The notes beneath the pieces are model-generated. The model saw nothing but the letters and a program-made list of their open reading frames with translations, did no database searches and was not told the origin of the DNA. A DNA stretch of 64,000 nucleotides from an uncultured bacterium (lineage in GTDB: Bacteria; Verrucomicrobiota; Verrucomicrobiia; Limisphaerales; UBA8199). Positions 52,998-63,214 of the stretch are shown here, piece after piece (position 1 is the first letter of the stretch; each line of letters starts with the position of its first letter). Location: the NCBI GenBank assembly GCA_963749495.1, contig CAVVMW010000001.1:704001-768000 (forward strand), written 5' to 3'. The position numbers and the translations under genes are program-made.

Positions 52998-54467
52998 ATG
53001 CTCAATCAACTGACCATTTCTGAGCTGGTGGACAAACTACGCAGCGGCCAGACCACATCGAGGGCGGCCATGGCGGCCTGCCTGGAACGGATTCGGAGTG
53101 TGGACGGGCGGCTTGGGGCGTTCATCAGTTATGATGAAGCGGATGCGTTAAGCCAGGCGGGGGAGGCGGACCGGGCGCTGGCGGGGGGACAGACCCACGC
53201 CGAGCGGCCGCTGCTGGGGGTGCCGATCGCCGTCAAGGACGTCATTGCGGTCAAGGGCCAACCGCTCAATTGCGGTTCGAAGATCCTCGGCCACTACGTG
53301 TCCCCGTTCGACGCAACGGTGATCGAGAGGCTCAAGGGGGCCGGGGCGGTGATCTTTGGGCGGCTGAACATGGACGAGTTTGCCATGGGCAGTTCGACGG
53401 AGAACTCGGCCTTCCAGGTCACGCGCAATCCCTGGGACGAGTCGCGAGTGGCGGGCGGTTCCTCCGGCGGTTCGGCGGCGGCGGCAGCCGCCGATGAATG
53501 CCTGGCTGCCCTGGGCTCGGATACGGGCGGTTCGATTCGCCAGCCGGCATCGTTTTGCGGGTGCGTGGGGCTCAAGCCCTCTTATGGCCGGGTCTCGCGT
53601 TACGGGTTGGTGGCGTATGCCTCGTCGCTGGATCAGATCGGCTGCCTGACCAAGGACGTGCGGGACGCGGCAGCGCTGCTGGAAGTGATTGCCGGTGCGG
53701 ACCCTCGCGATTCGAGCAGCGTGCCCCAACCCGTGCCGGCCTACACCGCCGGGCTGACGGGCGAAATCAAGGGTCTGAAGCTGGGCCTGGCCAAGGAATA
53801 CATGGTGGGCGGCCTGGACGCGCAGGTCAAGGCGGCCATCAACGGCGCGGTGCTGCAACTGGGGCGGCTCGGCGCGGAAGTGATCGAGGTCTCGCTGCCC
53901 CACACCCAGTACGCTACGGCTGCCTACTACATCATCGCCACCGCCGAGGCCAGCGCCAACCTCGCCCGGTTCGACGGCATACGCTACGGCGCCCGGGTCG
54001 AGGGCGCGGACCCCATCGAGCTTTACGGCAAAACGCGCGGGGCCGGGTTCGGCGACAAGGTCAAGCGCCGCATCCTCCTGGGCACTTACGTCCTGAGCAG
54101 CGGCTACTACGACGCCTATTACCTGCGCGCGCAAAAGGTCCGCACGCTGATTCGCAAGGACTTTCTGGAGGCCTTCGAAACGGTGGACGCCATCCTCACG
54201 CCGGTGGCCCCCACCCCCGCGTTCAAGATCGGCGAAAAGTCCGATGACCCGCTGCAGATGTATTTGTCCGACATCTTCACTATTTCGTGCAACCTGGCCG
54301 GCCTGTGCGGCATCAGCGTGCCTTGCGGTTTCACGCCCCCTTGCGATACACCCGAGGGGCCTCGGCCCAGGTTGCCCGTCGGCCTGCAACTGCTCTGCAA
54401 GCCCTTTAACGAGCCAACGCTCCTGCGCATCGCGCATGCCTACGAAGTAGCGCATGGTTGCTCGTGA
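52998..54467 (+). CDS. gatA: Asp/Glu-tRNA amidotransferase subunit A
   Basis: [55 protein letters not shown]. Confidence 0.97.
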
Positions 54468-55467
54468 GGGTCCAGAGCCAGTGGTTCATCATTTCGGCGT
54501 TCGTTTTGTCGGTCCAATGCTTGAAGAGGGGCGCGGCGTTGCCCAGGGGCCGGCGCTGGAAGGCGGGATGGATTTCCAGCGTGAACGAGAGCGGGGCGGG
54601 CGCGATGGACTCAAAGGCCCGGGCGACGATGCGGGCCAGGCCCTCGGGACCAAAGAGGAGGGGCGCTGAGCGGCGTCCTCGAAACTCGAAGGGCAACGGA
54701 ATGTCGGCCAGGAAGCTCAGGTGATCGGAGACCCCAAAGGGGCTGACCGTCGAGAGCGGGTGGCCGTCGTGCAGATGAAAATGCACCGCCTTGCCAAGGC
54801 GGCCAATGACCGCGATGAGGTCCAGGACGGCCGGGAGCGCGGAGCGGACGGCGCGCTCCACCTCGGGCATGAGTTTGGGCAGGGCAGGGGGCTGGGACTT
54901 GAGCGAACAGACGTCCTGGCCGCGATGGCTCAGCGCGTAGGTCTGCCTGGCCTTCCAGATGCCGACGTGGCCCACATTGATGCAGGCGCCCAGACGGCCC
55001 AGGTCACGGATGGCGGCATGGAACCGCGCGAAGAACTCCGGCTCCAACCCGGCGGCGTTTTCAATGAAAAGCATGGGACCGGCGCCGGCCTGTTCCAGGG
55101 CCTCTTCCATTTGCCAGGCCCCATCGAGATAGGCCTGCGGGCGTTGCTCGAGGTCGGCGTGGTCGTGGAGGACCATGCCGGAAATGCGCCCTGCCAGGCG
55201 CGCGGCAAACTCGACGATGCGCCGGCGGCTGCCCGCCTCGGCCAGGTTCAGTTCGCGTGGCAGGTGGACCACCACGGGGGCCTCTGGGCCGGGCCGGAAT
55301 CGAAGCGCCTGCTCCAATTGCTCGGGTGTGGGGGCGTGCATCTCCGCGCCCAATCCTGCCTGCCGGAAACGCAGCCGGGCCAGTTCCATCAGGCTGTCGT
55401 CGCCTTCGATGCGCTTTTCGAAGAGACCGAGCAACTCGGCGCGGCAGGCGTGCGGACGAGGCTTCAC
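54406..55467 (-). CDS. TIM-barrel (xylose isomerase/AP endonuclease-like) protein
   Basis: [33 protein letters not shown] and TLEIH metal-ligand pattern. Confidence 0.65.
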
Positions 55468-55619
55468 GGAGGGCCTCCGCCGAACCGGACGTTCTTTGAG
55501 GGTATGGACGGTAAAGCGGCGGGATGCGCCGCACTCCAGGCGCTTCGCGTTTCACAGTTCACGTTTCACGTTTCACGTTTCACGTTTCACGTTTCGCCGG
55601 TCCATGGAAAGTTCCCTGG

Positions 55620-58600
55620 TCAATGCCTCAGCCCCTGCTGTGCCCGGGCCTGGACCAGGTAGATGTCCCGGGCGAGCACGGCGCCCTCGACGTCCTGGGG
55701 GGCTCCGAAGGCCTCCTCGACGCGGCGCGCGATGACCGCCAAACGCCCGCCCAGGTCCCTTCGCGCCTCCGTGTCGCAGGACAATGAGACGCGCGAATAA
55801 TCCACGGTCTGGCGCCAGACGCCGGAGGGTCGAGGGTCGAGGGTCGAGGGAAGGGACCTCCGTCCCTCGTCCCTCGTCCCTCGCCCCTCGCCCCTCGTCT
55901 CTCGCCCCTCGCCCCTCGCCCCTCGACCCTCCTGTCCGGTTCGGAGTGCCTGGCTGAAGTTGGCGAAGGCAAGGGTGCGAACTTGTCCGGAGTGTTTGTT
56001 GCACACCAGGCGGTAGGGATTGCCGGGCATCGCGCCCGAGACGAGGGTCTGGCCCAGGCCGACCGCCAGCTCGGCATAGACCTCGCGCGAGTTGCCGTCG
56101 AGCGGATTGACCGTGTGCAGGACGAATGAGAAGTCCGGGTCGAGCAGCAACTGGATCAACACAGCCATCCGGACCTGGTCGTGCGGGACGCCGCCCTGCT
56201 TGCGGCTCGAGGCGGCGCGCTGTGTCCAGAGCGAGGCCCACACGGCCCGGACGGCCGAGGCCACTTGCGCCGGGGGAACATTGGCGATGGATTCATAGAG
56301 GCCAGCGCCCGCCATGTCCGGCAGGTCCTCGCAGTTGGCGCTGGAGCGGACCATAAGGCGGTCCCTCGGGCGAAAGCGGCGGCCGACTTCGATGGCAACC
56401 CCTTGAGGCACGTCGATCCGGCCGATGATCTCGCGCAGGCGCCCGGTTGCCGCGGCGAACTCTTGGGCAGGCATCCGGTCCAGATCCCGGCACAACTGGT
56501 GGTATTCCGCCTCGGCCTGCGGGGCCGCGTGCAGGCCCTGCTCCATCACGCCCAATGGAACCACCAATCCGGGGCTGGTCTTGAAGCCGGCCCCGGGCTG
56601 GCGCGCCAATTCCTCCAGACGGCGGGCGCCTGCCGCCTTGCCCCCGCCCGAGCCCGGCACGAGTTGCTCGAGGGCCACGCACGGCGGCTTGGGGGCCAGC
56701 CGGGCGGGAGGGATGCGCGCCGGTTGGCGCCCGGCCTGGCTGGAGGCGGGGCATTCCGCCGCCGCCCATTCCACCTTCTCGGCAGTGGCCGTCAAGGTAA
56801 TCACTTGCCCTTGAAGGTCTTTGAGGCGGGCCCACTCGGCCGCCTCCTCGCAGCAAACCAGGACGACGCCCCCCTGCCGCGCCCGGACGCCCAGGTGCGA
56901 CAGATGAGGCAAGTCGTGGGCGAGCACGATGCCCCGGACGTTGGCGGGGATTTCCTCATCGCCTTCCGCATGGTCCAGGAGCGCCAGCACGGGCTGGCCC
57001 GAATCCTCGAGCCTGCGGACGGCCCGCAGGCGGCCTGTGGCCCGACCGCTGACCAGCACGTCCCACGGGGGCAACTGCAGCCGGGCGCGCAGGCGGCGCA
57101 AGAGGGCCGCAGCCAGCCTGGAGAGCTGGAAGACAAGATGGCCGCGGATTTCAGCCTCGGCGAAAACGCGGATGGCGTGCTCGGCGACGCCCAGGGCGCA
57201 CCCGAGCCGTTCGGCCTCGGTTGAAAACAACGCGGCGATGCGCCGGCTCTGCTCCTGGGCCAGGCGCAGACTGCGATCCATGGTCGCTTTGAGGCGCAGC
57301 AGCGGCTCGCTCTGGCCGCTATCCAGAGCCTGTCCCAAAAGCTCTGGTTCCGGACCTTTGTCGCAGCCCTTGTCGGTGCCTTTGTCGAAAAAGGGCCAAT
57401 CCGACAAAGGTTTCGACAAAGGCTGCGACAAAGGTCTGCTACTCGCGGGGCTCTTGGGACAGGTTCTATCCAAGTCCGGCCCCCAGGCGCGCAACTCCGA
57501 TTCGATGGCGGCGCATTCCTCGGGTTCGACACTGCTCAGCGCCAGGTTCGCAACCGTCAGCAGGAGCGTCTCCAGCCACAACCGCATCTGCTCCCCGCCG
57601 CCGCCCTCCAGGGCGTTGATCATCCGGCTCAAGAGAGAGAAGGCGAAATCCTCCAGGGCGATGTCGGCGAGCAGGAATGGCTCGGTTTCCTGGCCTGGCT
57701 CGCGCCGGGTGCGGTCCAGGCAGAGGCGGCGCACCCCGCTCAGGGCCCTGAGCGCGCCCAGTTGGCCGGACAGCCCGGCGCCCGCCTTTTGGCTGAGAAA
57801 GGAACGGATCAGCGCGGCTCCATCGGCGCCGGCCTTATCGAGGAGCGCCTCCAACCGCTCGTCCAGGGAATGGGCGTTGAAGAACTCCCGGAGTTCATGG
57901 TGGAAGATCTTGAACTGTTCGACAAAATCAGGCGAGTAATTTGCGCCGGGAGCGGTGATGCGGTCCAGGAGGGCTGTGGCCGTGACGAGGTCCTCGGGCC
58001 CCGCGCAGCGATGGAGCTTGTTTTGGAGGGACTCCTTGATCTCGCGTTTGAGCTCGGAGGGGATGTCGTTCCGGTGGGCGATGTCTCGGATGCGGGTGAG
58101 GGGCTCGGCGCGTTGAAACGGCTGGGCGGTCGAGGGCAGCCATGGATGGATCTTGCGCGCGATGAGGGCCTGCTCGGCGGTGGGCAATCGGGCCAGCCGC
58201 CGCTGGATGTCCAGGGCGATGCGCGCATGATGGGCCGGGCGAAAATGCCGGCCATCCTCGGCGCAACGGACCTGGCCCGTCCCGAGAAACCGCAGATAGA
58301 TCGCCACGTCCACCAGTTGCTCCTTGGACAGCGGGGCGGGCTTCCGGGCCAGGCGCTCGCGCACCCAATCCAGCTTCTCCCGCCAACTGCGGCAGCGCCG
58401 GTCTGCGGCCGCCAGTTCGCCGACGAAGTCCGGCTCACCTTGCCCTGCGGACGCCCCCTCACCCCGGCCCTCTCCCCGTCCGACGGGGAGAGGGAGGAGA
58501 GTCGGCCGACGCTCCGACAACCCTATGCTCTCGGGAATCTCCCTGCCGGCGCCCGGTTCCTCCCTCTCCCCATCCGATGGGGAGAGGGCCGGGGTGAGGG

Positions 58601-59450
58601 GTCCCCCGGGCGCCGGTGACGCGCGAGACGGGGAGGCTTGCGCCGCTGAGGCCGCCTCGTCAAACAATTGCAGGAGGCGGTCGCGGGCGGCGTTCAGGAG
58701 AGAGGGCGGGTGTGGCCATTGCTCGAGGATGATCGAGCCGGAGAAATTGCGGCGGGCCAGGCGCTCCAGGAGGTGGCGCACCCCCGACTCATCGCGCGCG
58801 GCAGGGCCTGTGAAGAGCGGCAAGTGGCTGTCGGCATCACCCCAGTTTTCGTGGAGATGGAGGTGGATGATCGGCAGGCGCGGGTCGAGCCGGTCCAGGA
58901 ACTCGAGGTAGCGGTTGTGCGTCGCCTCGCAGAGATTGGCATGGCCTACGTCCAGGCACATGCCAACCTGGGCGGCGGGCGCGGAGTGTGGCGCGCGCAG
59001 CAACTCGAACAGCTCATTGAACAATTCCGGGGAGTGCTGGGGCGTGTTCTCGATGGCCAGGCAAATCCCCGCTGCCGCCGCGCGCCGGACCAGGGGGAGA
59101 ATGGCCTCGACAAAGGCCGGCGCTCCTTGCTCCGCATAGAGGTGGATGTTCAGCAACTCCGCCCCGAGGTCCCGGGCCAATTCCAGATCCTTCCACAGCC
59201 AGGCCCTGCACTCCGCCTGCAGCGGGTTTGCCTGCCAGCGGGCGTGGACCGACATGCGCACCCCTGCAGCGCGCGCCCGCTCCCGAATCCGCGCCCGCAA
59301 CGGCGCCGCAAGATCCGCCTCGTCCCATCCCGCCGCCTCGCCATGCCGGTCGGGAAACCACTCAAAGGCATCGAACCCGGCCGCCAGGGCGTACTCGAAC
59401 GGGACCAGCGGCGGGGCGGCGAACGATGTCTGGTTGCCGATGTGTATCAT
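55620..59450 (-). CDS. Phosphoglucan water dikinase (PWD/GWD3)-like protein with N-terminal TIM barrel
   Basis: TIM motifs (FEW, SVH, IENTP, LDVGHA, HLHEN, ILE). PWD motifs SWREKL, AIYLRFLGTGQVRCAEDGRHFRPAHHA, PLTRIRDIAHRNDIP..LK.EIK..LQNKLHRCAGPEDL. Phospho-His motif LPHLSHLGVRARQ. Nucleotide-binding domain VRSSANCEDL...GAGLYES, GLGQTLV, QDVEG, QARAQ. Confidence 0.88.
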   Translation of the reverse strand: MIHIGNQTSFAAPPLVPFEYALAAGFDAFEWFPDRHGEAAGWDEADLAAPLRARIRERARAAGVRMSVHARWQANPLQAECRAWLWKDLELARDLGAELLNIHLYAEQGAPAFVEAILPLVRRAAAAGICLAIENTPQHSPELFNELFELLRAPHSAPAAQVGMCLDVGHANLCEATHNRYLEFLDRLDPRLPIIHLHLHENWGDADSHLPLFTGPAARDESGVRHLLERLARRNFSGSIILEQWPHPPSLLNAARDRLLQLFDEAASAAQASPSRASPAPGGPLTPALSPSDGEREEPGAGREIPESIGLSERRPTLLPLPVGRGEGRGEGASAGQGEPDFVGELAAADRRCRSWREKLDWVRERLARKPAPLSKEQLVDVAIYLRFLGTGQVRCAEDGRHFRPAHHARIALDIQRRLARLPTAEQALIARKIHPWLPSTAQPFQRAEPLTRIRDIAHRNDIPSELKREIKESLQNKLHRCAGPEDLVTATALLDRITAPGANYSPDFVEQFKIFHHELREFFNAHSLDERLEALLDKAGADGAALIRSFLSQKAGAGLSGQLGALRALSGVRRLCLDRTRREPGQETEPFLLADIALEDFAFSLLSRMINALEGGGGEQMRLWLETLLLTVANLALSSVEPEECAAIESELRAWGPDLDRTCPKSPASSRPLSQPLSKPLSDWPFFDKGTDKGCDKGPEPELLGQALDSGQSEPLLRLKATMDRSLRLAQEQSRRIAALFSTEAERLGCALGVAEHAIRVFAEAEIRGHLVFQLSRLAAALLRRLRARLQLPPWDVLVSGRATGRLRAVRRLEDSGQPVLALLDHAEGDEEIPANVRGIVLAHDLPHLSHLGVRARQGGVVLVCCEEAAEWARLKDLQGQVITLTATAEKVEWAAAECPASSQAGRQPARIPPARLAPKPPCVALEQLVPGSGGGKAAGARRLEELARQPGAGFKTSPGLVVPLGVMEQGLHAAPQAEAEYHQLCRDLDRMPAQEFAAATGRLREIIGRIDVPQGVAIEVGRRFRPRDRLMVRSSANCEDLPDMAGAGLYESIANVPPAQVASAVRAVWASLWTQRAASSRKQGGVPHDQVRMAVLIQLLLDPDFSFVLHTVNPLDGNSREVYAELAVGLGQTLVSGAMPGNPYRLVCNKHSGQVRTLAFANFSQALRTGQEGRGARGEGRETRGEGRGTRDEGRRSLPSTLDPRPSGVWRQTVDYSRVSLSCDTEARRDLGGRLAVIARRVEEAFGAPQDVEGAVLARDIYLVQARAQQGLRH
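57325..57467. mobile_element. MITE inserted in frame in the PWD-like gene
   Basis: Ends AGAGCCTGTCCCAA / TTGGGACAGGTTCT. CTATCCA repeated at 57319 and 57466 (147 bp = 49 codons). Internal CTTTGTCG/CGACAAAG units, also seen at 63250-63290. Confidence 0.8.
58455..58601. repeat. REP family A copy in frame within the PWD-like gene
   Basis: Matches 3190-3335; translated as PLTPALSPSDGERE...GRGEGRGEG. Confidence 0.88.
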
Positions 59451-60916
59451 GCCCCGGCCTTGATGTGGTGGTAGATGTTGATGTAATCCTGGCCCGGGCG
59501 GTTCCAGGAACAATCGTAGCGCATGCCGTTGACCATGAGTTCCCGGAAGTATTTCGGATAGCTAAACCACATGCCGATGGCGCGGTGGAGCGCCGATTCG
59601 AGGCCCTGCCAGTTGTAGTCGTTGAAGACATAGCCGTTGCGCTCGTGGTAGGGCTTGTGGGCGTAATCGGCGTCGAAGACGGTGTCGGCCAGGCCGCCGG
59701 TGTTGCGGACCACGGGGACGGCGCCGTATTTCAAGCCGATGATCTGGGCCAGGCCGCACGGTTCGTATTGGCTGGGGACCAGGAGCAGGTCGGCGCCGGC
59801 GTAGATGAGGTGGGCCAGTTCTTCGTCGTAGCCGATCTCGAGGTGGCAGTCGGGGTGATCGTTGAAGCGTCGTTTGAGGCGCCAGAAGGCCTCGTTGACA
59901 TGGCCATGAGGGCTGGAGCCCAGCAGGACGAACTGGCAGCCGTGGTCCAGGCAGTAAGGCACGGCGTCGAAGATGAGGTCCACGCCCTTCTGGTGGTCCA
60001 GGCGGCCGACGAAGGCGACGATGGGTTGGTAGTCGTGCCGGAGCCACAACCGCTCGCGGAGGGCCTGTTTGTTGGCGTATTTGTCCTGGAGGGTATCAAT
60101 GGAGTAGCGCCTGGGGATATGAGGGTCCGTCTCGGGGTTCCAGACGTTGCAGTCGATGCCGTTCATGACGCCGCCCAACTTCTGGTGGTGGACGTTGAGG
60201 ATGCGCTGGAGGCCCATGCCCAGCGGTGTGGTCTGGATTTCCCGGGCATAAGTGGGGGAGACGGTAGTGACGAAATTGGAATAGACGATGCCGCCCTTCA
60301 TCAGGTTGGCGCAGCCGGGGTAGGAGTCGTCCAGGAGGCGGTCGCGGTTCATGAGCGCGCGCGGGTCCAGCCCCACCTCGCGCAGGACGTGCTCCCCCAG
60401 TTGGCCCTGGTGGCCGACATTGTGGAGCGTGAAGCAAACACGGGGGCGCCTCATGCCCAGGTGCTGGTAGATCTCGTAGAGCAGCACCGGCGCCAGGGCC
60501 GTCTGCCAGTCGTGACAGTGGATCACCTCGGGGTGTTTGTTGGCCTTGAGCATGAACTCGAGGGCCGCCCGGCAGAAAAAGGCGAATCGCTCGCCGTCAC
60601 GGTCCCCGTAGAAATGGCCCCGGTTGAAGAAGTTGTGCTGCGAATGCGCGTCGATGAAGAAGCATTTGACGCCATCGACGAACCCAAAATAAACGTCGCA
60701 ATGGATCCACTGATCGTAAAATGGCACCCAGAGATCCGCATAGGACCTGGTCAACCCGTAGATCCGGTCGTAGCGCATGCAATCGTACTTCGGCAGAATG
60801 ACCTCGACCGCGTGGCCGCGCAGGGCCATCTCCCGCGACAGCCCGTGTACCACGTCGCCCAACCCGCCGACCTTGGCCGCAGGGGCGCACTCCGTAGCTA
60901 CCATGACGATGAACAT
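59447..60916 (-). CDS. glgA: Glycogen/starch synthase (GT5)
   Basis: ECAPAAKVGGLGDVV, HCHDWQTA, FTLHN, TTVSPTYA, GRLDHQKG, PSQYEPCGL, TGGLADTV. Confidence 0.96.
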   Translation of the reverse strand: MFIVMVATECAPAAKVGGLGDVVHGLSREMALRGHAVEVILPKYDCMRYDRIYGLTRSYADLWVPFYDQWIHCDVYFGFVDGVKCFFIDAHSQHNFFNRGHFYGDRDGERFAFFCRAALEFMLKANKHPEVIHCHDWQTALAPVLLYEIYQHLGMRRPRVCFTLHNVGHQGQLGEHVLREVGLDPRALMNRDRLLDDSYPGCANLMKGGIVYSNFVTTVSPTYAREIQTTPLGMGLQRILNVHHQKLGGVMNGIDCNVWNPETDPHIPRRYSIDTLQDKYANKQALRERLWLRHDYQPIVAFVGRLDHQKGVDLIFDAVPYCLDHGCQFVLLGSSPHGHVNEAFWRLKRRFNDHPDCHLEIGYDEELAHLIYAGADLLLVPSQYEPCGLAQIIGLKYGAVPVVRNTGGLADTVFDADYAHKPYHERNGYVFNDYNWQGLESALHRAIGMWFSYPKYFRELMVNGMRYDCSWNRPGQDYINIYHHIKAGA

Positions 60917-61095
60917 AATGTGAGCGTTTATATTGCCAGCAACGACAAGATAGCACCAGTCCCGCCTGAAGGCAGCACACGGCATTTTCTCATTTGCTCA
61001 AAAGGAGGTCTCGTGTTACTGAAACGCCTGGTCGCCACCCCACTGGCGGAATTGGATTGCTTCGCTGCGGGGCGGTCCCATGCTTTGGCTGATCC

Positions 61096-62562
61096 ATGAA
61101 GCAGCAGCAGACAGACCCCGCCGCCGCCACGCTCCACCCCTGGCGGGTGAGCCGGCCCCCATTCCGGGCGCAGCCCCCGGGCGCGCTCGGCAATTGGGAG
61201 TGGGACCTTGCCACGGGCATAATCGCGTGGTCGGATGAGGTCTATCGCATGTTCGGGTTCGATCCGCGGCAATTTCAGCCCACTCATCAGAACTTCCTGT
61301 CGCGCGTTCACCCGGAGGATCAGTCGGTCTTCGAGGGCGCGCTGGAGGATGCCTTGAACGGGCGCCGCCCCTACGCGCTGGAGTTTCGCATCCGGGCGAG
61401 CGATGGGACGGTGCGAGTGGTTCGTTCGCAGGGGGCCGTGATTGCCAACGAGGCGGGCCGGCCCGTGCGCATGTTCGGCACGGCCCAGGATGTGACGCGG
61501 CGCCAATGGGCCGAGGAGGCGCTGCGCACCTCCGAGCAACGGCTGCGCATTCTCTTCGAGTATGCCCCGGACGCCTACGTTCTCTGCGACACCCAAGGCC
61601 GGTTCGTGGATGTCAACCGGGCCGCCGAGGACATCAGTGGCTATGGGCGGGAGGAACTGATCGGCAAGAGTCTCTTCCAGTTGGACTTGCTCTCCCCGGC
61701 AGAGCGCGCCAAGGCCGCCGCGCACGTGGGGCAGTTGAGGCAGGGTCAGGCCGTGGGCCCGCATGAGATCACCTTTCGCCGCAAAGACGGGAGTGGGCGG
61801 ACCGTCGAAATCCGCTGCTACCCGGCGCAGGTCGACGGCCAGGTGCTCGTGCTGGGCATAGCGCGGGATGTCACGGAGCGGCACCGCGCCGAAGAGGCCG
61901 TGCAACAGCTCTCCGCCCAATTGTTGAGCCTGCAAGACGAAGAACGCCGGCGAGTGGCCCGTGAAATCCACGACTCGACCGCGCAGAAGCTGGCGGGTTT
62001 GATGCTGGCGCTGGGGGGCCTGGAGGACGCTGCCGCAGCGCCGGCGTTGCGGAGGCTCGCGGCGGAGGCCCAGGCGCTGGCCGGCGAGTGCGCGCAGGAA
62101 CTGCGGACCCTTTCCCATCTCCTGCACCCGCCCCTGCTGGAGGAACTCGGGTTGGGCGTGGCCCTGGACACTTATGTCACCGGCTTCAGCAAGCGCAGCG
62201 GCATCGAGGTTCTTTTGGATGTGCCTGCGGGCCTGGTCGGACTGCCTGCGGCAGCGGAGTTGGCGCTGTTTCGCATCGTGCAGGAGGGCCTGGGCAACAT
62301 TCTGCGCCACTCGGGCAGCCGCAGCGCCCGGGTGCACCTGACCCAGTTCAAAGAGCGCCTTGTCCTGGAAATCTGCGATGATGGCCGCGGCATCCCCGCC
62401 GAGCGCCTGCGCCAGGTCCGCGAGCACGCGTCCGCCTGCGGCGTGGGCATCGCCGGCATGCAGCAACGCCTCAAACAACTGGGAGGCGAACTGGAAATTG
62501 ATTCGACTCGCGCCGGCGTGACGGTCCGGGCCACCTTGCCTCGCCATGAGCGTGCCGGCTGA
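61096..62562 (+). CDS. PAS-PAS sensor histidine kinase (HisKA_3)
   Basis: GNWEWD, RVHPED, ERRRVAREIHDS, FRIVQEGLGN, DDGRG, GIAGM. Confidence 0.92.
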   Translation: MKQQQTDPAAATLHPWRVSRPPFRAQPPGALGNWEWDLATGIIAWSDEVYRMFGFDPRQFQPTHQNFLSRVHPEDQSVFEGALEDALNGRRPYALEFRIRASDGTVRVVRSQGAVIANEAGRPVRMFGTAQDVTRRQWAEEALRTSEQRLRILFEYAPDAYVLCDTQGRFVDVNRAAEDISGYGREELIGKSLFQLDLLSPAERAKAAAHVGQLRQGQAVGPHEITFRRKDGSGRTVEIRCYPAQVDGQVLVLGIARDVTERHRAEEAVQQLSAQLLSLQDEERRRVAREIHDSTAQKLAGLMLALGGLEDAAAAPALRRLAAEAQALAGECAQELRTLSHLLHPPLLEELGLGVALDTYVTGFSKRSGIEVLLDVPAGLVGLPAAAELALFRIVQEGLGNILRHSGSRSARVHLTQFKERLVLEICDDGRGIPAERLRQVREHASACGVGIAGMQQRLKQLGGELEIDSTRAGVTVRATLPRHERAG

Positions 62563-63214
62563 AACGCTCAGGGTCCTGGTCGCCGATGACCATGCCGTGG
62601 TCCGCGACGGGGTGCGCCGCCTCATCGAGACGCAGCCGGGTTGGCGCGTGGTGGGGGAGGCGGCCACCGGCCGGGAGGCCGTCGCTCTGGCCCAACAACT
62701 GCGGCCGCACGTCGTGGTGCTGGACTTCACCATGCCCGAGCTCAATGGCCTGGAGGCGACACGCCAGATCCGCCGGGCCCTGCCGGAGACCGAGGTGCTG
62801 GTGATGACGGTACACGATTCCGAGAGGCTGGCCCAGCAGTTCCTGGATGCGGGCGCGCGCGGCTACGTGCTCAAGAGCGACGCGCGCAGTCATCTTCTGG
62901 CCGCCCTGCAGGCCATGGCTAAGCACCAAACCTACTTCACGCCCAAAGTCTCCGATCTCATCCTCAGGCGGTTCCTGGAATCCAGGACCGGCGCCGACGC
63001 CCAGGGCCTGCCCTTCGAACATCTCACCTCCCGCGAAAGAGAAGTGCTCCAGCTCGTGGCCGAAGGCCGCACCACCAAGGAAATCGCCGCCATTCTGGGC
63101 CTGAGCGCCAAAACCGTGGAAGTCCATCGCGCCAACCTCATGAGCAAGCTCAATCTCCACTCCGTCGCCGACCTCGTCCGCTATGCCGTGCGGAACCAGA
63201 TCATCGAGCCGTGA
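62546..63214 (+). CDS. NarL/LuxR response regulator
   Basis: VADDH, LDFTMPELNG, LTSREREVL, KTVEVHRANLMSKL. Confidence 0.95.
   Translation: MSVPAETLRVLVADDHAVVRDGVRRLIETQPGWRVVGEAATGREAVALAQQLRPHVVVLDFTMPELNGLEATRQIRRALPETEVLVMTVHDSERLAQQFLDAGARGYVLKSDARSHLLAALQAMAKHQTYFTPKVSDLILRRFLESRTGADAQGLPFEHLTSREREVLQLVAEGRTTKEIAAILGLSAKTVEVHRANLMSKLNLHSVADLVRYAVRNQIIEP

Follow-up and report, generated by a model that had tools for sequence, protein, structure and literature searches.

A predicted glucan dikinase with an N-terminal metal-site TIM barrel in a glgA operon of an uncultured verrucomicrobial bacterium, and its possible place in reversible glucan phosphorylation

Here we describe a short operon in a stretch of 64,000 nucleotides (nt), referred to as the window, from an uncultured bacterium of the Verrucomicrobiota, lineage Limisphaerales (assembly GCA_963749495.1, contig CAVVMW010000001.1, positions 704,001 to 768,000 of the forward strand). 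Coordinates are positions in the window unless a locus name precedes them. The operon comprises three open reading frames (ORFs) that all run in the same direction, on the minus strand: glgA, a gene in which a triosephosphate isomerase (TIM) barrel, barrel1, is joined to a predicted dikinase, D2 (the fusion is written barrel1::D2), and the gene of a second TIM barrel, barrel2. Another dikinase, D1, is encoded on a different contig of the same genome (L018:6492-10004). By its domains, D2 is assigned to the family of glucan, water dikinase (GWD) and phosphoglucan, water dikinase (PWD), and the barrel in front of it carries a set of metal-site-type residues that is invariant among its homologues. 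The features of the operon are the following:

59447..60985, minus strand: glgA-type glycogen/starch synthase, gene 1 of the operon (Pfam Glyco_transf_5, 3e-70, and Glycos_transf_1)
58635..59450, minus strand: barrel1, residues 1-272 of the 1276-amino-acid (aa) protein (Pfam, AlphaFold2, conservation)
58419..58634, minus strand: variable linker between barrel1 and D2 (linker lengths in 63 fusions; genome DNA search)
~58443-58610, minus strand: repeat 1, in the barrel1-D2 linker (84 matches on both strands of its own genome)
57066..58418, minus strand: putative central (glucan-acceptor) domain of D2 (profile match to 9ha9)
~57319-57479, minus strand: repeat 2, in a loop of the central domain (82 matches on both strands of its own genome)
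56757..57065, minus strand: GWD-type phospho-histidine domain of D2 (Pfam PF22973, 1.5e-20)
55635..56645, minus strand: ATP/AMP-binding (PPDK_N) domain of D2 (Pfam PF01326, 9e-37)
~55814-55939, minus strand: repeat 3, in a loop of the ATP domain (78 matches on both strands of its own genome)
55620-55622, minus strand: stop codon of the barrel1::D2 gene (ORF list)
54406..55467, minus strand: barrel2, a stand-alone ORF of 353 aa and the last gene of the operon (AlphaFold2, Foldseek, VIA, hhalign, conservation)

The barrel1::D2 gene is the long ORF at 55620-59513 (minus strand). The most probable start codon is the ATG at 59450, because the database copy of the protein (P0003) has 1276 aa and because this ATG overlaps the stop of glgA within the sequence ATGA at 59447-59450. 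A stop/start overlap of this type is the usual sign of translational coupling, and coupled translation of the genes for glucan synthesis and for the dikinase is suggested at this junction.

The first-pass annotation of the window had placed a barrel of the AP-endonuclease-2/xylose-isomerase type in front of a dikinase, and this is what we find. Pfam assigns residues 39-271 (P0001 numbering) to AP_endonuc_2 (PF01261; E 6e-24; score 85.5 bits, cut-off 31.1), the long ORF contains the motifs LAIENTPQ, CLDVGHAN, IIHLHLHENWGDADSHLPL and IILEQWP, and an AlphaFold2 model built from an alignment of 64 stand-alone homologues is a regular (beta/alpha)8 barrel (predicted local distance difference test, pLDDT, 94.1; predicted TM-score, pTM, 0.91). 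A Pfam score above the gathering cut-off together with a (beta/alpha)8 fold places barrel1 in the PF01261 superfamily. Eleven His, Asp and Glu positions (H69, H103, E134, D167, H170, H196, H198, H200, D207, H209 and E243) are identical in 64/64 stand-alone homologues and in 25/25 fusion proteins. Since all eleven are invariant in both sets, the conservation of barrel1 is far above chance, and the description of the barrel as a conserved domain of metal-site type stands.

The likely roles of these residues were read from a profile search of PDB sequences. H103, E134, D167 and H170 align with residues 109, 145, 179 and 182 of E. coli endonuclease IV (Endo IV; 1qtw), as counted from the printed alignment coordinates, and the segments LLNIH, IENT and CLDxGHA pair with LLNFH, IENT and CIDTCHA of the same enzyme. 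H200 and D207-x-H209 (HEN...DADSH) align with the H-x-N and D-R-H (HLN...IDRH) of the apurinic/apyrimidinic (AP) endonuclease of African swine fever virus (ASFV), and H69, in the segment VHA, aligns with VHA in Endo IV of M. tuberculosis. All nine positions of the three-metal site of Endo IV are covered in this manner, four by the E. coli enzyme, three by the ASFV enzyme, one by the M. tuberculosis enzyme and the last Glu by MJ1311 only. We take the aligned residues to be the ligands of the three metals of Endo IV; what these residues do in Endo IV is reportedly described by Hosfield and colleagues, in a 1999 paper with “three-metal-ion catalysis” in its title.

The ranking of the profile matches is informative in the same context. 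The E-value is 6e-12 for MJ1311, about 0.003 for three Endo IV enzymes, 0.018 for UlaE and 0.49 for allulose epimerase, a ketose epimerase. Comparison of folds does not tell phosphoesterases from sugar epimerases, and the single-metal epimerases appear to share with barrel1 both the fold and their E-D-H-E positions. In NCBIfam, the sole match for either barrel is CbiR (NF041277), whose cut-off of 105 bits lies well above the scores obtained (36.8 and 22.7). With respect to the Endo IV family proper, the profile match of barrel1 is weak (E 0.003), and its genomic context consists of glucan genes. Taken as a whole, the predicted ligand set supports a phosphoesterase better than a single-metal epimerase. 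Earlier, a glucan-phosphate phosphatase, an epimerase and a binding module had all been offered as roles for one of the barrels; the ligand set favours the phosphoesterase among them, and the invariance of a catalytic-type set argues against the binding module.

Barrel2 has no Pfam family match, and searches of PDB sequences with it, both as a single sequence and as a profile, returned nothing meaningful, such that its placement comes from the fold search and hhalign only. The AlphaFold2 model is a TIM barrel (pLDDT 93.8) with E. coli endonuclease IV as its top match in Foldseek (5e-6), and hhalign pairs the profiles of barrel1 and barrel2 in the region of the E...D-x-x-H segment (probability 87%, E 4e-6). 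Judged from the model, barrel2 is a divergent member of the barrel1 superfamily. H68, H101, D102, E136, H167, H229, H231, H233, D234, H236, D248, H249, E298 and H300 are invariant in 50/50 family members and make up a set equivalent to that of barrel1, and the second stand-alone barrel with similar ligands that had been noted at 54406-55467 is thereby substantiated. Residue 164 (codon 54976-54978) is Asp in 49/50 members of the family and Asn in the window copy alone, which could be genuine, could mark a weakened enzyme or could stem from an error in sequencing. Homologues of barrel2 number 1182, and the named ones among the 120 listed are called “hypothetical protein”.

The rest of the fusion protein has the domains of a GWD/PWD dikinase, in agreement with the first-pass annotation. 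In P0001 numbering, GWD1_pHisD (PF22973) is found at residues 817-919 and PPDK_N (PF01326) at residues 957-1293, with the E-values listed above. A profile of the D2 domains of the fusion family retrieves the crystal structure 9ha9, the central domain from potato GWD1, with an E-value of 7e-8, covering chain residues 293-463 only, and an ESM Atlas look-up with the D2 central domain gave low scores (0.75-0.77) that are leads at best. On the strength of these matches, D2 is assigned to the GWD/PWD family as a predicted glucan dikinase with central, phospho-histidine and ATP domains. In one source, homologues of D2 go under the label “phosphoglucan, water dikinase”, and the motifs of D2 presumably resemble those of PWD; by these labels and motifs, D2 would be PWD-like. 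Pfam detects no starch-binding module (CBM45 or CBM20; carbohydrate-binding module, CBM) at the N-terminus of D2, where the only match is PF01261. Two histidines of the phospho-histidine domain, H849 and H852, are present in 25/25 sequences. H852 (codon 56895-56897) lies in the motif PHLSHLGVRARQ and is presumed to be the catalytic His by analogy with His992 of the potato enzyme (available part of PMC12892837).

The second dikinase, D1, carries two GWD1-type immunoglobulin-like N-terminal modules (PF23166, CBM45-type) in addition to PF22973 and PF01326 by Pfam. Its central domain matches 9ha9 over the whole domain with an E-value of 1e-80, at an identity of ~45% as judged by eye in the printed alignment. 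The genome is thus predicted to encode a GWD1-like D1 and a more divergent D2.

The coding sequence of barrel1::D2 contains copies of three different families of interspersed, partly palindromic repeats (repeats 1 to 3 in the list above). Each of them keeps the reading frame, has no stop and gives a low-complexity insert; of 24 aligned homologues, at least 80% lack the inserts of repeats 2 and 3. The low-complexity stretches of D2 had also been considered as extra domains; this was rejected, because genome matches identify them as interspersed repeats. We take them to resemble the in-frame palindromic elements of Rickettsia.

A scan with one genome per species gave 144 related loci, of which the best 80 were analysed. 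These 80 come from Verrucomicrobiota, Desulfobacterota, Gammaproteobacteria (Chromatiales, Thiotrichales), anammox Planctomycetota, magnetotactic Nitrospirota and others, and include one cultured isolate, Luteolibacter marinus (L102). Homologues of the full protein number 1037 at E <= 0.001; all of the 120 listed share the three Pfam domains. Stand-alone barrel1 homologues number 734, with 55-69% identity among the 120 listed. The closest homologues listed carry Verrucomicrobiota/Limisphaerales labels, which makes this phylum the probable origin of the window. Barrel1 lies directly before D2 in 63 of the 80 loci and stands alone in 11; three loci are cut at the 5´ end, two have D2 without barrel1 (L049, L058) and one ends at a contig edge. 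Barrel1 and D2 share a single open frame in 62/63, the exception being L102, where the two lie in different frames (L102:9619-11599) and are either separate genes or separated by a frameshift.

The neighbours of these genes were counted in the assessable loci, 50 for either neighbour of the fusion and 10 for stand-alone barrel1. Barrel2 directly follows D2 in 44/50 and lies farther off in one, D1 is directly upstream of the fusion in 37/50, and stand-alone barrel1 comes directly after D1 in 9/10. Co-occurrence of barrels and dikinases, which had been suggested as a check, is therefore found, and the barrels are not absent from most loci. Across several phyla the recurrent order is D1, barrel1, D2, barrel2. 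Among 15 stretches from close relatives and the bacterium's own genome, seven have glgA, D1 in some cases, the fusion and barrel2, and five have D1 followed by stand-alone barrel1 and lack both D2 and barrel2.

Other fusions involve the C-terminal side of the dikinase. In L058, the D2 that has no barrel1 is joined at its C-terminus to barrel2 in one ORF of 1358 aa, and the same D2::barrel2 junction is found in one frame in L072. The latter locus is cut at its 5´ end (L072:7-3984) and may encode a barrel1::D2::barrel2 triple fusion. An exhaustive search with barrel2 gave 279 cluster representatives, of which 150 were listed; among these, 12 exceed 1000 aa and have barrel2 at the C-terminus. Ten of the 11 long representatives scanned have the His and ATP domains and no PF01261, and the remaining one, P0377, has PF01261 and the His domain and no PPDK_N. 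The long D2 proteins without barrel1 have no CBM by Pfam either. In P0367 (783 aa), barrel2 is joined to an amylase-like domain of glycoside hydrolase (GH) family 13. In P0383 (626 aa), barrel2 spans residues 298-618, and Pfam finds nothing in the N-terminal half.

The order D1, barrel1, D2, barrel2, the lone D1-barrel1 pairs and the D2::barrel2 fusions together suggest two modules of the type “dikinase then barrel”, namely D1-barrel1 and D2-barrel2. This suggests in turn that barrel1::D2 arose by the joining of neighbouring genes across a module boundary, and barrel1 is probably the ancestral partner of D1. The length of the linker, 7-106 aa across the 63 related fusions, and the insertion of a repeat into the linker of the window copy fit with barrel1 and D2 being independently folding domains. 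Plant PWD has a CBM20 at its N-terminus, and the first-pass annotation had proposed that barrel1 replaces it. In that wording, this part of the annotation is not supported. Barrel1 does hold the CBM20 position, and yet it appears to be a fused neighbouring enzyme and not a substitute for a binding module, because it is found as a separate gene after D1, because D2 is found without it and because the linker is variable.

The genomic surroundings point to glucan metabolism. In a context sample of nine diverse loci with 47 flanking proteins classified by Pfam, genes of alpha-glucan metabolism adjoin the cluster in seven: GlgA, GlgB, a GH57 branching enzyme, a GH77 glucanotransferase, a GH13 amylase-like protein and isoamylase. 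Of the other two, L094 has only an ambiguous glycosyltransferase (GT) of family GT4 or GT5, and L088 has no glucan enzyme. One of the sampled loci, from Desulfobacterales, has a gene for a DUF4912 protein (L099:15591-16694) between the GH13 amylase-like and GH57 branching-enzyme genes downstream of barrel2, and this protein may also belong to the glucan cluster. In relatives of the window, glgA orthologues with 74-84% identity lie upstream of the dikinase genes. The substrate is most likely a storage alpha-glucan, given the glucan neighbours, the CBM45-type modules of D1 and the match of D1 to potato GWD1. In the same genome, no phosphatase of the dual-specificity phosphatase (DSP) type scores above the Pfam cut-off, and one match lies below it.

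At the edges of the operon, a convergent amidase gene (52998-54467, plus strand) closes the unit, and genes for a PAS histidine kinase and a LuxR-type response regulator (61096-63214, plus strand) are placed divergently upstream of glgA. PAS kinase/LuxR-like genes also flank the cluster in the relatives L021 and L017 and may regulate the operon. A promoter and terminator scan of 54000-61400 gave counts not above those of shuffled sequences and is hence uninformative. A search of sequencing runs listed no RNA run and a single DNA run, with a small share of 0.08, and gives no indication for or against expression.

We propose, with evenly balanced confidence, that a metal-dependent phosphoesterase accompanies each dikinase and acts on phosphoglucan. 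By analogy with the family, ATP would phosphorylate the swivelling histidine of D1 or D2, and the phospho-histidine would hand its phosphate to the glucan on the central domain. The barrels would then hydrolyse the esters of the glucan, or those of released phospho-oligosaccharides, at a multi-metal site of the Endo IV type, with barrel1 serving the product of D1 and barrel2 that of D2, as their pairing suggests. The outcome would be a bacterial counterpart of the plant cycle of GWD/PWD and SEX4/LSF2 with a different phosphatase fold. What the analysis shows directly is the domain architecture, fold, ligand conservation, gene order and fusions; that the substrate is a glucan, that the chemistry is that of a phosphoesterase and that the specificities are paired are inferences. 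A stable complex of barrel and dikinase is not part of it.

Several observations weigh against the proposal. The phosphoesterase role of both barrels and the activity of D1 and D2 are predictions, and the metal site is deduced from sequence alignment. The four ligands of the epimerases would form a subset of the conserved set of barrel1. D2 is a presumed orthologue of plant PWD, by source labels and motifs. Barrel2 of the window has its Asn164 at the equivalent of Asp179, the D of the D-x-x-H metal motif, and barrel2 was not found in 5/50 assessable loci (L051, L062, L067, L088 and L097). Finally, a kinase and a phosphatase in one polypeptide would carry the risk of a futile cycle.

Four other explanations were considered. 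The barrels could be isomerases, epimerases, dehydratases or lyases that modify phosphorylated glucosyl residues, or else sugar phosphates or phospho-oligosaccharides after their release, without hydrolysing an ester. Most characterised members of the xylose-isomerase-like superfamily modify sugars, and the structural scores of the barrels are high to ketose 3-epimerases, UlaE, IolE, Art22 and 3-keto-glucoside enzymes; conservation of the E-D-H-E positions agrees with such a role, as does the source label “sugar phosphate isomerase/epimerase” on stand-alone homologues, although names of this kind are automatic family labels. We nevertheless consider this explanation unlikely, as seven more His and Asp positions, matching the extra metal sites of Endo IV, are invariant, and the profile E-values rank Endo IV enzymes over epimerases.

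Alternatively, the barrels might regulate the dikinases, e.g. by hydrolysing the phospho-histidine intermediate or a nucleotide by-product. The tight one-to-one pairing of barrel and dikinase and the repeated fusion of barrels to either end of D2 would be in line with this. On the other hand, P0367 joins barrel2 to a GH13 glucan enzyme and not to a dikinase, no result speaks specifically for regulation, and we know of no precedent in the barrel superfamily; regulation by the barrels is in our view improbable. There is similarly little to recommend barrel1 as a non-catalytic module that binds glucan or phosphoglucan and does the job of CBM20, in spite of its N-terminal location at the place of CBM20 in plant PWD and the lack of a CBM in D2 by Pfam: a complete ligand set of catalytic type is invariant, barrel1 is a separate gene in 11/80 loci, D2 occurs without it, and the linker is variable and tolerates the insertion of a repeat. 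In spite of the common ligand set and fold, a role of barrel1 in DNA repair, as an Endo IV-family AP endonuclease fused to D2 by chance or misassembly, is hardly credible, considering the weak profile match, the glucan genes next to it, the three-domain architecture of 120/120 listed homologues, the one open frame in 62/63 loci from several phyla and, as a strong argument, the synteny.

D2 has a domain order in common with plant and algal PWD/GWD3 (EC 2.7.9.5) and GWD1 (EC 2.7.9.4; StGWD1, 9HA9/9QVI), the order in StGWD1 being central, His and ATP domain (available part of PMC13553574). PF22973, PF01326 and a homologous central domain are found in the plant enzymes as well as in D2, and the two types of dikinase coexist in plants as the GWD1-like D1 and D2 do in this bacterium. 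Unlike plant PWD, D2 is bacterial, is encoded in a glgA operon, and has an N-terminal metal TIM barrel and no CBM by Pfam. The AP endonucleases of the Endo IV type (Nfo and those of ASFV and M. tuberculosis) have very weak sequence similarity to barrel1 (E 0.003) and belong to DNA repair, in contrast to the glucan context of barrel1. MJ1311 of Methanocaldococcus jannaschii (3wqo, “D-tagatose 3-epimerase-like protein”) and TTHB071 (3ayt/3ayv) differ from barrel1 in not being fused to a dikinase; we found no function for either in the literature.

The role proposed for the barrels is that of SEX4/LSF2 and laforin, which remove C6 and C3 phosphate from glucans, and the breakdown of starch in plants needs GWD/PWD and subsequently SEX4/LSF2 (both from the available part of PMC12892837). 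The analogy is functional only: these phosphatases are Cys-based DSPs, whereas both barrels are metal TIM barrels in their models, unrelated in fold and chemistry. CbiR (NF041277) is a member of the same superfamily that hydrolyses a phosphoester in a non-DNA substrate and shows that the superfamily includes such hydrolases, with one to three metals (available part of PMC7733943). The scores of the barrels to CbiR are far below the cut-off, and the contexts, cobamide remodelling and glucan metabolism, differ.

In the literature, we found no description of a bacterial GWD/PWD or of a barrel-dikinase fusion, although a chapter by Colpaert et al. (2020) on the storage polysaccharides of prokaryotes may bear on the subject. 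In the available part of the paper on the StGWD1 structure (PMC13553574), the strings “bacteri” and “prokaryot” are absent. According to the available part of a review of September 2026, prokaryotes are without laforin and glucan-phosphorylation machinery is not known from them, and starch-like granules accumulate in some Verrucomicrobia (10.64898/2026.09.25.754361). The proteins of the cluster carry automatic names in the databases. What appears to be new here is the presence in bacteria of predicted genes for glucan phosphorylation together with a candidate phosphatase of a different fold.

In conclusion, we suggest tentatively, and with somewhat less than even confidence, that many bacteria run a complete, reversible cycle of glucan phosphorylation, in which dikinases of the GWD and PWD types would each be accompanied by an Endo IV-like, multi-metal TIM-barrel glucan phosphatase. 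The carriers would be found among Verrucomicrobiota, Desulfobacterota, sulfur-oxidising Gammaproteobacteria, anammox Planctomycetota and magnetotactic Nitrospirota. Reversible glucan phosphorylation is known in plants and is seen as a hallmark of eukaryotes that store starch. The phosphorylation of bacterial storage glucan, the enzymes that write and erase it and the existence of a glucan phosphatase other than DSP are now made testable. The genes also have a bearing on the origin of eukaryotic GWD/PWD genes, and offer compact enzymes for the modification of starch phosphate. If our suggestion is true, the cluster would represent the missing prokaryotic machinery for glucan phosphorylation and a previously unrecognised class of glucan phosphatase, and it may mark bacteria that store a semi-crystalline, starch-like glucan.

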